The translations under genes were made by a program, and so were the position numbers. The notes beneath the pieces were generated by a model. It worked only from the letters and a program-made list of their open reading frames with translations. It did no database searches and was not told the DNA's origin. From an uncultured Gemmatimonadota bacterium (GTDB lineage: Bacteria > JAAXHH01), in contig OX638340.1 of assembly GCA_951812955.1 (NCBI GenBank), forward strand, positions 2,816,001 to 2,880,000: a stretch of 64,000 nt of DNA. Direction: 5' to 3'. Of this stretch, positions 2,898 through 59,159 are shown in pieces (position 1 is the first letter of the stretch; every line of letters begins with the position of its first letter).

Positions 2898-4172
2898 ATG
2901 CGCGAGGCGCACGGAGGAAATGGCTTGAACTACACGGTATCCGAACCCAAACCCTGGAAACGCGTCCTGGAGATCGAAGTGCCCTCCGATGCGATTCAAT
3001 CCGAACTGAACGCCGCCTACGCGCGTTACAGTAGAGAGGTGCGCCTTCCCGGGTTCCGCCGGGGCAAGGTTCCACTCAGTGTGCTCAAGGCCCGTCTCGG
3101 CAATGAAATCCGGGCGGAAGTGCTCGAGAAGAAAATACCTGAATACCTGAACAGCGCCCACGAAAAGGCCGATATCAAGCCTATTAGCCAGCCCGTGATC
3201 GAAGAGATAGAATTCGACGAAGGACAGGACCTCAAACTCCGGGCCAGTGTGGAAGTCAAGCCCGCCATAGAATTGAAGCAATACAAGGACCTGCGGGTGA
3301 ACCGGCGGACCGTGAACGTGACCGACGAGGATATAGATCAGCGGCTGGAGGGGTTGCGGGAACGATACGCCAGCGTGGTGAACGTCGATGGTGCAGCGGA
3401 ACGGGACCACTTCATCCGGGCCGATATTCAGCATGCGGACAACAGCGGCGTGCCGATCATCGGGCGCAAGGAGGAGAACCAGTTTTTCCAGATCGGTTCC
3501 GGCCGCCTTGGAGAGGATTTCGACACCCAGTTGACCGGGGTCAGGGCCGACGAGGACCGTACCGTCCGGACCACGCTTCCGTCCGACTACCCCGACGAGA
3601 ACATGGCGGGCGGGGAAGCCTGTTTTATCGTGAGTGTCCGTGAGGTCATGGAAAGACAATTGCCGGACGCGGACGACGATTTCGCCGTGGACATCGGCAT
3701 GGAGAGCCTGGACGCCCTGAAACAGTCGATCAGGGAGGAAATCGAGCGGGAACCGGACCGGGAATTGCGCAACGACCTGGTCACGCAGATCGTGGAGGCC
3801 CACGATTTCGAGGTGCCCGAATCCATGATGACCGCCTATCTCGACCAGGTGGTGGCGGACGCGCGCCGTACCACGCGGGATCAGGACGAAGTCGACGAGA
3901 ACGCCCTTCGTCAGCAGTACCGGCCCGTGGCGAACAACCAGATCATGCGCCATCTCATCCTGGACGCCATCGGCGAGCAGGAAGGGCTGGCGGTGGATCA
4001 GGAGGAAGTGGATGAGCGGCTGGAGGCCGTCGCGGCGCGGGGCCAGGCCTCTGTCGACCAGGTTCGCAAACTCTTCCGTGAAAACGGGAGGCTGGAACGC
4101 ATCGAAGCGGATCTCAGGGAGGAGAAGGTCGTTGAGTTTCTCGTGCAGCACGCCGACATACAAGCGGAGTAG
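2898..4172 (+). CDS. tig: trigger factor
   Basis: 424 aa. The N-terminal ribosome-binding region contains the trigger-factor signature GFRRGKVP. Classical position immediately upstream of clpP-clpX-lon. An alternative start is TTG 2925, preceded by GGAGGA at a 6-nt spacing. Confidence 0.9.
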   Translation: MREAHGGNGLNYTVSEPKPWKRVLEIEVPSDAIQSELNAAYARYSREVRLPGFRRGKVPLSVLKARLGNEIRAEVLEKKIPEYLNSAHEKADIKPISQPVIEEIEFDEGQDLKLRASVEVKPAIELKQYKDLRVNRRTVNVTDEDIDQRLEGLRERYASVVNVDGAAERDHFIRADIQHADNSGVPIIGRKEENQFFQIGSGRLGEDFDTQLTGVRADEDRTVRTTLPSDYPDENMAGGEACFIVSVREVMERQLPDADDDFAVDIGMESLDALKQSIREEIEREPDRELRNDLVTQIVEAHDFEVPESMMTAYLDQVVADARRTTRDQDEVDENALRQQYRPVANNQIMRHLILDAIGEQEGLAVDQEEVDERLEAVAARGQASVDQVRKLFRENGRLERIEADLREEKVVEFLVQHADIQAE

Positions 4173-4193
4173 GCCGACATACAAGCGGAGTAG
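4152..4193 (+). repeat. perfect 21-bp tandem duplication (x2) of the last 6 codons plus stop of tig
   Basis: GCCGACATACAAGCGGAGTAG occurs at 4152-4172 and again at 4173-4193. Copy 1 ends with the tig stop codon. Copy 2 supplies a second in-frame TAG just before the clpP RBS AAGGAG. Confidence 0.95.
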
Positions 4194-4205
4194 AAGGAGC
4201 GTCTC

Positions 4206-4829
4206 ATGTTAGTACCGATGGTGATCGAACAGACGGGCCGCGGGGAACGGGCCTACGACATCTACTCTCTGCTGCTGAAGAACCGCATCGTCTTTATCGG
4301 TATGCCGATCGACGACACCATCGCGAACCTGGTGATCGCCCAGTTACTCTATTTGCAGTACGAAGACGCCGAGAAGGACATCAAACTGTACATCAACAGC
4401 CCCGGTGGCAGTATCACTGCGGGTCTGGCCATTTACGACACCATGCAGTTCATCCAGCCCGACGTGGAGACTTACTGCCTGGGCATGGCCGCCAGCATGG
4501 GCGCCTTTCTCCTCACGGCGGGCGGTGCCGGGAAACGGTACGCCCTGCCCTATGCGCGTATCCTGATCCACCAGCCTTCCATCCCCCACATGGCCGGAAC
4601 GGCGAAGGATATCGAGATCCAGGCCGAGGAAATGCTGCGCATGAAGCGGACCATGAATGAGATCATGGCCCATCACACCGGACAGTCCGTGGACAAGATT
4701 GAATCGGATACCGACAGGGACTTCTGGATGTCGCCGGAACAGGCCGTGGAGTACGGACTGGTGGACCACGTGGTCGAAACCGCCGCTTCAAAGGCCATCG
4801 CCGAATCGCTGAACGGCAAAACCGCCTAG
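4206..4829 (+). CDS. clpP: ATP-dependent Clp protease proteolytic subunit
   Basis: 207 aa. [19 protein letters not shown]. Catalytic Ser block [11 protein letters not shown]. His block [17 protein letters not shown] upstream. Confidence 0.97.
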
Positions 4830-4838
4830 GACGGGATC

Positions 4839-58153: not shown

Positions 58154-58223
58154 CCGGAAAAAACCTTACAGCGTTTCACGAGTCAACAAGAGGAACGGAA
58201 ACCGACCATAGGGGGGACAACCT

Positions 58224-59093
58224 ATGTCATCCAACGGGGCGTTTATCATAGACAAGAACCTGGGCGCGCGCCTGGACGAGACCCAGGCGGATCTGCCGAA
58301 GGCCAATTCCGATGGCGAAGCGGTCGTCCCGCCGACGGATGAACAGAAATACCTGTTCGACAAGGACGGCTGGCTCCTGTTGCCCGGGGTGCTGTCCGAG
58401 GCCGAATGCGTGGAGATGCGGGCGTTCTGCCTGCAGTTGCACCATGATCCGGAGTCCATCCCCGAACCCGAGCGTTCTGTCCTCGGCGGACCATTACAGC
58501 GCCTGACGGACCACCCATTGGTGGTGGGTTTCATGAACGAATTTCTGGCCTACCCCGGCCTGTCCAGCCAGATTTGCTACGGTTTCCGTCAGGAATCTGC
58601 CAGTTTATTCTACCGGGAATCCGGTGACGGCGCCTTCGGCCCTCATAACGGCAACGGCATGCTGCGTTTCCCGGGCGACTCCCATCTCTACCGCTGTATT
58701 CCTGGCAAGGCCAACTCCGCGCTGACAAGGGTGGTCTGGGAACTGAACCCGGTCACGGAGGGGAACGGAACGCTGCTGGTATCCGGAAGCCACAAGGCCG
58801 TCTTCCCCGCGCCGCCGTCCATACAATCGCCGGACTCGCCGATCTGGAACACCTATACCTGTCCGCCAGGATCGTTGATATTCTTCACCGAGGCCCTCAC
58901 CCACAGCGGCAGGCCCTGGATCGACGAGGAGCATCCGCGGATCGCCGTCTTCAGTTGCTACAACTCTGTCAACAGCAAGTGGCACAACTGGGACCCGCAC
59001 CCCGAGCTTCTTGCTTCCATGCCGCCCCTCAGACAGACCCTCTACCGTCCGGTTCACGTGGCTGGCAACCTGGTGGGTGGCGAGGTACACTGA
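58224..59093 (+). CDS. PhyH-family Fe(II)/2OG oxygenase-like protein with atypical H-x-G first metal motif
   Basis: 289 aa. YLFDKDGWLLLPGVL (PhyH N-terminal block). GPHNGNG sits where the paralogs have WHQD/WHHD. Distal LLVSGSHKA. Confidence 0.7.
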   Translation: MSSNGAFIIDKNLGARLDETQADLPKANSDGEAVVPPTDEQKYLFDKDGWLLLPGVLSEAECVEMRAFCLQLHHDPESIPEPERSVLGGPLQRLTDHPLVVGFMNEFLAYPGLSSQICYGFRQESASLFYRESGDGAFGPHNGNGMLRFPGDSHLYRCIPGKANSALTRVVWELNPVTEGNGTLLVSGSHKAVFPAPPSIQSPDSPIWNTYTCPPGSLIFFTEALTHSGRPWIDEEHPRIAVFSCYNSVNSKWHNWDPHPELLASMPPLRQTLYRPVHVAGNLVGGEVH

Positions 59094-59123
59094 GCGTGGT
59101 TTCGATCAGGGTGCCGGGGAACT

Positions 59124-59159
59124 GGGATTGCCGATCAAACAGGGATTGCCGATCGAACA
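59124..59159. repeat. 18-bp tandem duplication (x2) between convergent gene ends
   Basis: GGGATTGCCGATCAAACA / GGGATTGCCGATCGAACA. Confidence 0.9.

Follow-up and report, generated by a model that had tools for sequence, protein, structure and literature searches.

Short tandem duplications with ghost gene ends in sponge-associated Latescibacterota probably reflect a lineage-specific mutational process filtered by selection

The 64,000-nucleotide stretch of contig OX638340.1 analysed here, hereafter the window, carries numerous short tandem duplications, several of which copy the 3′ end of a gene together with its stop codon, so that an untranslated ghost of the gene end stands next to the working one. 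This raises the question of whether such arrays are functional elements or traces of a mutational process. An earlier note on this DNA had listed ten of them and attributed them to an active microhomology or slippage process whose products survive where they do not disrupt open reading frames (ORFs), with selected backup stops, spacers or terminator-like structures as the alternative. We consider it probable that a lineage-specific mutational process together with purifying selection, and not a functional element, lies behind the pattern: the duplications are derived, have recurred at the same gene ends, are restricted to a clade and use locus-specific units, and the way they are distributed fits a selective filter. 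For the duplications themselves we infer an enzymatic cause.

Tandem arrays in the window frequently cover stop codons

We employed Tandem Repeats Finder (TRF) on the window and a diagonal self-match test as its complement. Every array listed earlier is present, and the TRF coordinates are nearly identical (Table 1). At a score of ≥50 and a period of ≥8 the window contains 9 arrays, compared to a mean of 0.52 and a maximum of 3 in controls in which codons were shuffled within genes and bases within spacers. The rsgA end array and the degenerate holA–rsgA spacer repeat were overlooked by TRF; both are evident in the sequence and significant in the diagonal test (p at its floor, 1/61). The same test revealed a significant local direct repeat in 10 of the 32 spacers of ≥30 bp, as well as a fifth stop-spanning array that was absent from the earlier list, the decayed ghosts of the PPDK gene end.

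Genes were called from Pfam matches and with a simple codon-usage caller, which resulted in 43 genes, a coding fraction of 91% and a median spacer length of about 100 bp. These calls bear out the four stop-spanning cases of the earlier note, in which four arrays cover five real stops, namely those of tig (4170–4172), lon (8556–8558), tsaE (8614–8616, minus strand), rsgA (13844–13846) and an Ala_racemase_N/D-ser_dehydrat gene (45846–46934, minus strand), the D-threonine-aldolase-like (D-TA) gene of that note. With 4 of the 10 listed arrays lying over a stop, compared to about 4% by random placement, the overlap exceeds chance (binomial p ~4e-4). Unusual stop-codon usage was considered as a cause and rejected, since TGA, TAG and TAA are used 25, 11 and 6 times, respectively, like in high-GC controls.

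The duplications are derived, recurrent and restricted to a clade

Scanning a genome collection with the tig protein yielded 22 syntenic loci that each comprise the same 21-kb region (loci from related genomes are labelled L001 and so forth). They originate from metagenome-assembled genomes (MAGs) of sponge- and coral-associated Latescibacterota, some of which are labelled Gemmatimonadetes, and many are complete HiFi chromosomes of 3.5–4.0 Mb. At the nucleotide level, L001 is 97% and L002 95% identical to the window, and the others 66–89%. The tig duplication is confined to the window and L001, and since the 20 other relatives keep the single-copy sequence (..CAGCAC GCCGACATACAAACGGAGTAG AAGGAG..), it is derived and recent. 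Its 21-bp unit consists of the final six codons plus TAG and is followed by the ghost copy, and the array end directly abuts the clpP ribosome-binding site AAGGAG. The lon/tsaE duplication is found only in the window, L001 and L002 and is single-copy outside these; polarisation by sister genomes, which the earlier note had suggested, hence identifies both events as derived and lineage-specific. This second array covers a convergent junction; in copy 1 the lon end is the real one and the tsaE end a ghost, and in copy 2 it is the reverse. In the window, and likewise in L002, the two copies have lineage-specific substitutions in common, which argues for homogenisation of the array. When the window is compared to L001, the ghost halves are more diverged than the working halves.

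The same gene ends were struck repeatedly. Independent duplications of the tsaE end are present in L004, L016 and L022, and of the lon end in L017 (~83 bp, four copies) and in L009, L011 and L015 (10 bp), the last of which alters the final Lon residues. The holA stop was duplicated independently in five lineages (L010, L011, L016, L019 and L022) and the rsgA stop in L006 and L013, while L002 possesses a 36-bp array of 2.6 copies in the holA–rsgA spacer, which measures 159 bp in the window versus 52–106 bp in many relatives. At the clpX stop, TGACC occurs in two copies in the window, four in L002 and about five in L001, and L009 harbors an independent 22-bp array of 2.8 copies. In the serS/DUF2400 spacer, L002 retains a partly deleted version of the 48-bp array, and other lineages carry different duplications. 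At rsgA, the ancestral TAG stop (window 13817–13819), which is still TAG in L002 and other relatives, reads AAG in the window; RsgA thus runs nine codons further to a TGA in the former spacer, and this extension was then duplicated. The duplicated 'gene end' is therefore a read-through extension into the old spacer.

A second set of relatives, found via RtcB homologues, covers 33.5–54.8 kb of the window. Here, the unit in the loop of an enolase-superfamily protein is present in two copies in the window and in L111–L115 and in three copies in L108–L110. At the D-TA array, L111–L116 have one additional 23-bp unit with a second TCA, i.e. a second ghost stop. The PPDK end of L111-type relatives is a clear array (~62 bp, 2.7 copies), and the arrays in the spacer upstream of SpoU are different in every close relative. 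Separately, an exact 14-bp duplication (GCGCGGAAGTAACG, twice) lies directly upstream of a chromate-transporter gene (L111 locus ~16,400–16,470; reverse-complement 4543–4803) only in the L111-type species, another very young event.

Copy-number polymorphism within a species, envisaged in the earlier note, was not apparent: six L111-type samples, a small number, do not differ from one another at the D-TA array, and no variation was seen within this species at the enolase loop (5 samples), PPDK (4) or SpoU (4). Copy numbers differ only between species that are 2–5% apart. Since the six samples lack polymorphism, the arrays are fixed between-species differences and not hypermutable, and as far as this small sample goes they are not hypervariable within species in the manner of variable-number tandem repeats (VNTRs).

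Assembly errors, transposon footprints or target-site duplications, or a dispersed REP/MITE/MIRU-like family might in principle mimic such arrays, and the short-read MAG L017 indeed has runs of N inside arrays (~15700–15860 and ~17925–18020). These runs may mark places where arrays broke or were scaffolded during assembly, or else sequence that was masked in the collection. Assembly error is nevertheless unlikely, since Illumina MAGs as well as HiFi chromosomes assembled independently of one another contain the tig and lon/tsaE duplications, with copies that differ by substitutions. A dispersed family was rejected because the units are locus-specific, mutually dissimilar and not copied elsewhere in the 64 kb. 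Transposon target-site duplications or excision footprints were rejected because the unit lengths of 9–83 bp are not fixed and show no mode except for multiples of 3 inside genes. Altogether, an artefact or mobile element as the source of the arrays is exceedingly improbable.

Array placement is consistent with a selective filter

We compared the positions of 93 arrays of the clade with random placement. Intergenic arrays were observed 38 times compared to 6.0 expected (6.3x) and stop-spanning arrays 19 times compared to 3.7 (5.1x), whereas no array spans a start (3.9 expected) or both a stop and a start (1.6 expected), and the 36 intragenic arrays fall below the expected 77.6 (0.46x). The period is divisible by 3 in all 36 intragenic arrays, and spacer and stop-spanning arrays are of any length. 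Relative to spacer arrays (set to 1), survival amounts to ~0.8 for stop-spanning, ~0.07 for intragenic and less than ~0.1 for start-spanning arrays. This class distribution is the prediction of a uniform duplication process combined with purifying selection, and a duplication that straddles a stop survives because the protein is left unchanged. Of the process claimed in the earlier note, active local duplication with survival of the products where ORFs are undamaged is thus retained, but its basis in microhomology is not (see below).

Our proposed course of events is as follows. A subclade of sponge- and coral-associated Latescibacterota would make short exact tandem duplications (units of ~9–83 bp) of any local sequence struck, at a rate well above that of a diverse bacterial sample. 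Selection would purge out-of-frame intragenic and start-codon duplications, in-frame ones would persist only in tolerant loops (the ClpX loop, the enolase-superfamily loop and the n-region of a signal peptide), and those confined to spacers would be retained. Duplications that straddle a stop would be retained at nearly the rate of spacer duplications, copy 1 supplying the intact C-terminus and stop and copy 2 becoming the untranslated ghost; since spacers are short (91% coding), a surviving event of 20–60 bp would often include a gene end. Later, arrays may change their copy number (2 versus 3, 4 versus 5), may occasionally be homogenised or otherwise decay by substitution, and may now and then remodel C-termini.

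Among the in-frame arrays, ClpX of one relative clade carries an Ala/Gln-rich repeat whose 9- or 18-bp units immediately precede the Walker A motif; the protein gains between 3 and 39 residues in this way, the number varying from genome to genome, and the window is without the repeat. As a separate observation, the lengths of RtcB among close relatives (P0001–P0085; homologues of window 43589–44782) are 397, 400, 403, 406, 409, 412, 415, 418, 421, 424, 439 and 441 residues. Because these homologue lengths step by 3 residues, they suggest that RtcB is also subject to in-frame repeat expansion.

We further asked if the duplicated termini might have been selected to separate genes, to add backup stops or to form terminator or mRNA-stabilising hairpins. 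That the same junctions were struck independently in several lineages would agree with this, as would the lon/tsaE event, which made a 55-bp spacer from near-abutting convergent stops, and the rsgA and D-TA units, which fold better than their shuffles (z = -2.9 and -3.6, respectively). However, these two are the only units with z below -2, the other 9 of 11 being without excess structure. The array units contain no T run of the kind that an intrinsic terminator would have, and a scan for terminator-like sites found none that coincides with an array (17 overall versus 15.4 in shuffles). Multiples of 3 are not favoured among the unit lengths, since 7 of the 19 stop-spanning units are divisible by 3, the third expected by chance; ghost stops are hence in frame only by chance. 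Moreover, ghosts accumulate differences more rapidly than the working copies and lack conservation from one lineage to another, stop-spanning arrays are not enriched above plain spacer arrays, and low-load relatives get by with only a few bases of spacer at these junctions. Neither the backup stops nor the terminators considered in the earlier note find backing in these results, and an adaptive role of the ghost ends appears very unlikely to us.

The excess over other bacteria is greatest for young and stop-spanning arrays

As controls we used 1.32 Mb of unrelated bacterial DNA, comprising E. coli, pSymB, a Ralstonia megaplasmid and 80 metagenome loci, the last being matches of a PPDK-protein scan and distant relatives only (≤64% identity). 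Arrays with a score of ≥50 occur at 1.41 per 10 kb in the window, 1.83 in the clade and 0.69 in the controls (~2x excess), and arrays with a score of ≥80 at 1.09, 0.98 and 0.18, respectively (~6x). For young duplications (≥95% identical, no indel, unit ≥15 bp) the difference grows to 45 per Mb in the clade versus 3.0 in the controls (~15x). Stop-spanning arrays make up 4 of 10 in the window, 19 of 93 in the clade (~37 per Mb) and 2 of 81 in the controls (~1.7 per Mb), a ~20x excess. The frequency called unusual in the earlier note is thus unusual for long-unit young duplications and stop-spanning arrays, but the overall density is only moderately raised. On a neighbour-joining tree of clpP–lon, the array load is 0.9–4.2 per 10 kb in a derived clade (L004, L005, L007, L013, L016, L019, L022, L009, L017, the window, L001 and L002) versus 0–1.4 in basal lineages. 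Sequencing technology is not the cause of this contrast, because Illumina and HiFi assemblies are found on both sides.

Instead of an elevated rate of duplication, an ordinary rate could underlie this load if the effective population size of these host-associated lineages is small, or their deletion bias weak, so that slightly deleterious extra DNA, ghost gene ends among it, builds up and persists. The array load follows phylogeny, as a population-size effect would; many arrays are old or decayed (71% matches in the D-TA array, degenerate copies at 12705–12825 and 38066–38241); and the lack of copy-number polymorphism in six samples of one species is likewise compatible. However, the excess is greatest in young arrays, which argues for input and not only for retention. 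In addition, highly conserved essential proteins such as ClpX also expand in frame, low- and high-load complete genomes are of similar size (3.5–4.0 Mb) and the coding density is still 91%. We therefore regard drift with an ordinary duplication rate as unlikely.

Several points weigh against a lineage-specific mutational process filtered by selection. The overall array density of the window is only ~2x the control mean, one high-GC control locus is as array-dense as the window, and the controls are unmatched for lifestyle and phylogeny. The gene starts stem from a simple caller, which makes the zero count of start-spanning arrays approximate. The relatives found with the tig protein resample one 21-kb region, so the events are not fully independent and the stop-spanning arrays represent ~15 independent events. 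Among indels of ≥4 bp between close relatives about a third are clean tandem duplications, and the remainder are mostly inside arrays with ambiguous alignment or not tandem. Finally, a higher mutational input and a weaker selection or deletion pressure, as by symbiont drift, cannot be separated in these data.

Duplication junctions lack microhomology beyond chance

The earlier note had proposed classical slippage or microhomology-mediated duplication between pre-existing short direct repeats. In 14 independent clean two-copy events, the junctions show 0 nt of microhomology in nine, 1 nt in three and 2 nt in two cases, compared to ~7.5, 4 and 1.6 events expected by chance from the base composition. 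The polarised tig event has none (ancestral ..CAGCAC/GCCGAC...GAGTAG/AAGGAG.., slashes marking the unit boundaries). The direct repeat of typically ≥4 nt at both ends that characterizes microhomology-mediated tandem duplications (MTDs) is thus not observed, and because the junctions lack microhomology beyond chance, classical microhomology slippage is unsupported. A check of the boundaries by eye found no unit starting with T among 26, a count rendered unreliable by phase ambiguity and the small sample. MTDs of fission yeast (S. pombe) strongly favour long GC-rich microhomology, and E. coli events are only ~1/20 as frequent (PMC8639346), which further speaks against slippage. Once two copies exist, however, the changes in copy number fit slippage well (TGACC 2/4/5, 30-bp unit 2/3, 22-bp unit 4/5), and hairpins in some units could favour it. 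Slippage is hence the likely cause of later copy-number change, and quite an unlikely one for the duplications as such.

Our preferred guess, drawn by analogy, is that fill-in and rejoining of staggered breaks, or else homology-independent template switching, may have caused the duplications. Exact duplications free of microhomology are a known outcome of staggered-break fill-in, as in mycobacterial end joining by Ku/LigD and in paired-nick editing, where joining of 5′ overhangs or repair of the nicks results in an exact tandem duplication of variable length between the offset nicks. The arrays share with the end-joining fill-in class the lack of microhomology at the junction, a likeness of outcome only. 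A deficiency of the flap endonuclease Rad27 in yeast (rad27) demonstrates that a single-pathway change can produce a genome-wide excess of ~5–100 bp duplications; these are flanked by direct repeats of 3–12 bp, unlike the junctions described here.

The only DNA-repair-like function near the arrays is encoded at 50162–52801 on the plus strand of the window (L108 1996–4638), where the gene of an XPB-type helicase (XPB_DRD and ERCC3_RAD25_C) precedes that of a DUF790 protein. The two resemble the archaeal XPB–Bax1 helicase–nuclease pair; no evidence ties the pair to the duplications.

Comparison to known systems and implications

Fission yeast MTDs are short local tandem duplications that occur genome-wide, are reversible by copy loss, are depleted or in-frame in essential genes and have no frame bias in intergenic DNA (PMC8639346). 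The duplications described here are similarly local, filtered by selection and in-frame inside genes, but differ from MTDs in their junctions, which are devoid of microhomology beyond chance, in being fixed between species instead of subclonal, and in their bacterial host, where the same study reports MTDs to be much rarer. Bacterial minisatellites or VNTRs, including the mycobacterial interspersed repetitive units (MIRU), have units of 10–100 bp, lie mostly in the spacers of compact genomes and sometimes over a neighbouring stop or start, and vary in copy number between lineages. Unlike the dispersed, related units of MIRU, each unit here is a local unique sequence and often the gene's own end, and unlike VNTRs, copy number is not polymorphic among the six samples of one species. 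According to the 'close direct repeat' model of Achaz, Rocha and colleagues, bacterial repeats reportedly arise as adjacent duplications that then decay or are deleted. That model is general and statistical, and is not known to include a high clade-specific load, a stop-spanning class or junctions free of microhomology, as described here.

More tentatively, it is possible that this subclade of sponge-associated Latescibacterota is in a heritable, microhomology-independent mutator state for short duplications, in which exact duplication of 10–80 bp would be the main route of spacer growth, gene-end remodelling and loop expansion; ghost gene ends that bear stops would be the hallmark of a hitherto undescribed bacterial signature. 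Such a state could stem from an end-joining, flap-processing or nicking activity that was gained or lost. In agreement with the remark in the earlier note that the pattern was undescribed, a search of the open-access literature turned up no account of duplications that span stops, nor of any repeats in sponge Latescibacterota, although such absence is weak evidence.

If the process is real, phylogenetically bounded sister clades of high and low load, with many complete genomes, could reveal a repair or replication function that controls it. The duplications lengthen spacers, move stop codons (rsgA in the window, lon in L015) and insert repeats into ClpX and an enzyme of the enolase superfamily. 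In practical terms, gene calling can go astray at ghost ends and in-frame arrays, and short-read assemblies break at arrays. No new molecular machine is revealed by these findings.

Arrays and further features of the window

Table 1. Tandem arrays of the window and the ClpX repeat of its relatives (copy numbers are preceded by x).
Feature	Position	Strand	Repeat	Remarks
tig end array	4152–4193	+	21 bp x2.0, 100% identical (TRF)	
ClpX repeat, orthologous to window ~5142	L005 12240–12329; L007 12205–12259; L013 12210–12276; L019 12228–12315; L022 12216–12256			
clpX stop repeat	6084–6093	+	TGACC x2	starts with stop codon TGA; absent from earlier list
lon/tsaE array	8523–8640	no strand	59-bp duplication	TRF 8523–8635, x1.9, 98%
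serS/DUF2400 spacer array	10543–10640	no strand	48 bp x2.1, 94% (TRF)	
holA–rsgA spacer repeat	12705–12825	no strand	degenerate	fills spacer; diagonal test offset 87
rsgA end array	13823–13882	+	30 bp x2	contains current rsgA TGA stop
Signal-peptide array	30845–30892	+	24 bp x1.9, in-frame	TRF 30845–30890; peptide ..ASPCSRFRASPCSRF..
SpoU spacer array	34306–34382	no strand	23 bp x2.8	TRF 34306–34369
PPDK end ghosts	38066–38241	+	decayed 3′-end copies incl. TAG	GGAATAGGGCGCCTGG / CGAATAGGGTACCTGG
Enolase-loop array	43441–43504	-	30 bp x2.1, in-frame	TRF 43441–43502; GGNSADPGAH/GDNSAEPGAS
D-TA array	45771–45862	-	22 bp x4.1 (TRF)	71% matches
PhyH/aminotransferase spacer array	59120–59164	no strand	18 bp x2.4 (TRF)	intergenic

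Unit 1 of the D-TA array comprises the last five codons plus TGA of the gene, and decaying ghost units occupy the spacer as far as TauD. The 48-bp array is intergenic, with the promoter region of serS on one side and the stop of the DUF2400 gene on the other. The SpoU spacer array sits between a divergent polysaccharide-synthesis gene and the SpoU methylase gene, and the 18-bp array separates convergent genes for a PhyH-like protein and an aminotransferase fusion. Of the in-frame arrays, the 30-bp repeat forms a loop insert in the N-terminal domain of the enolase-superfamily protein, and the 24-bp duplication is most likely located in the n-region of the lipoprotein signal peptide of an FG-GAP/ASPIC protein, as judged from a predicted start codon.

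The gene layout of the window includes tRNA-Leu, tig, clpP, clpX, lon, tsaE(-), serS(-), DUF2400(-), holA, rsgA and DUF6917(-). Scans with Rfam and for tRNAs revealed no known RNA gene within the arrays and returned only the tRNA-Leu at 2665–2746. Upstream of two large ORFs (called at ~1008 and 1054 aa), 893 bp at 17093–17985 are without a called gene, Rfam match or repeat. The tRNA-Leu (anticodon TAG) lies upstream of tig and is 96% identical even in L021, the most distant relative. Nearly all relatives share a strongly conserved element upstream of serS, at 10485–10545 of the window (..CACGGTAAAATAGGA..CCCGGCAAGCAGAAACG..); without matching an Rfam family, it reads on the minus strand like a promoter (TTGCCG-18-TATTTT) plus leader. 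Finally, the 1041-residue ORF at 59194–62319 (minus strand) is an unusual fusion of APH phosphotransferase, Peptidase_M23 and class-III aminotransferase domains.

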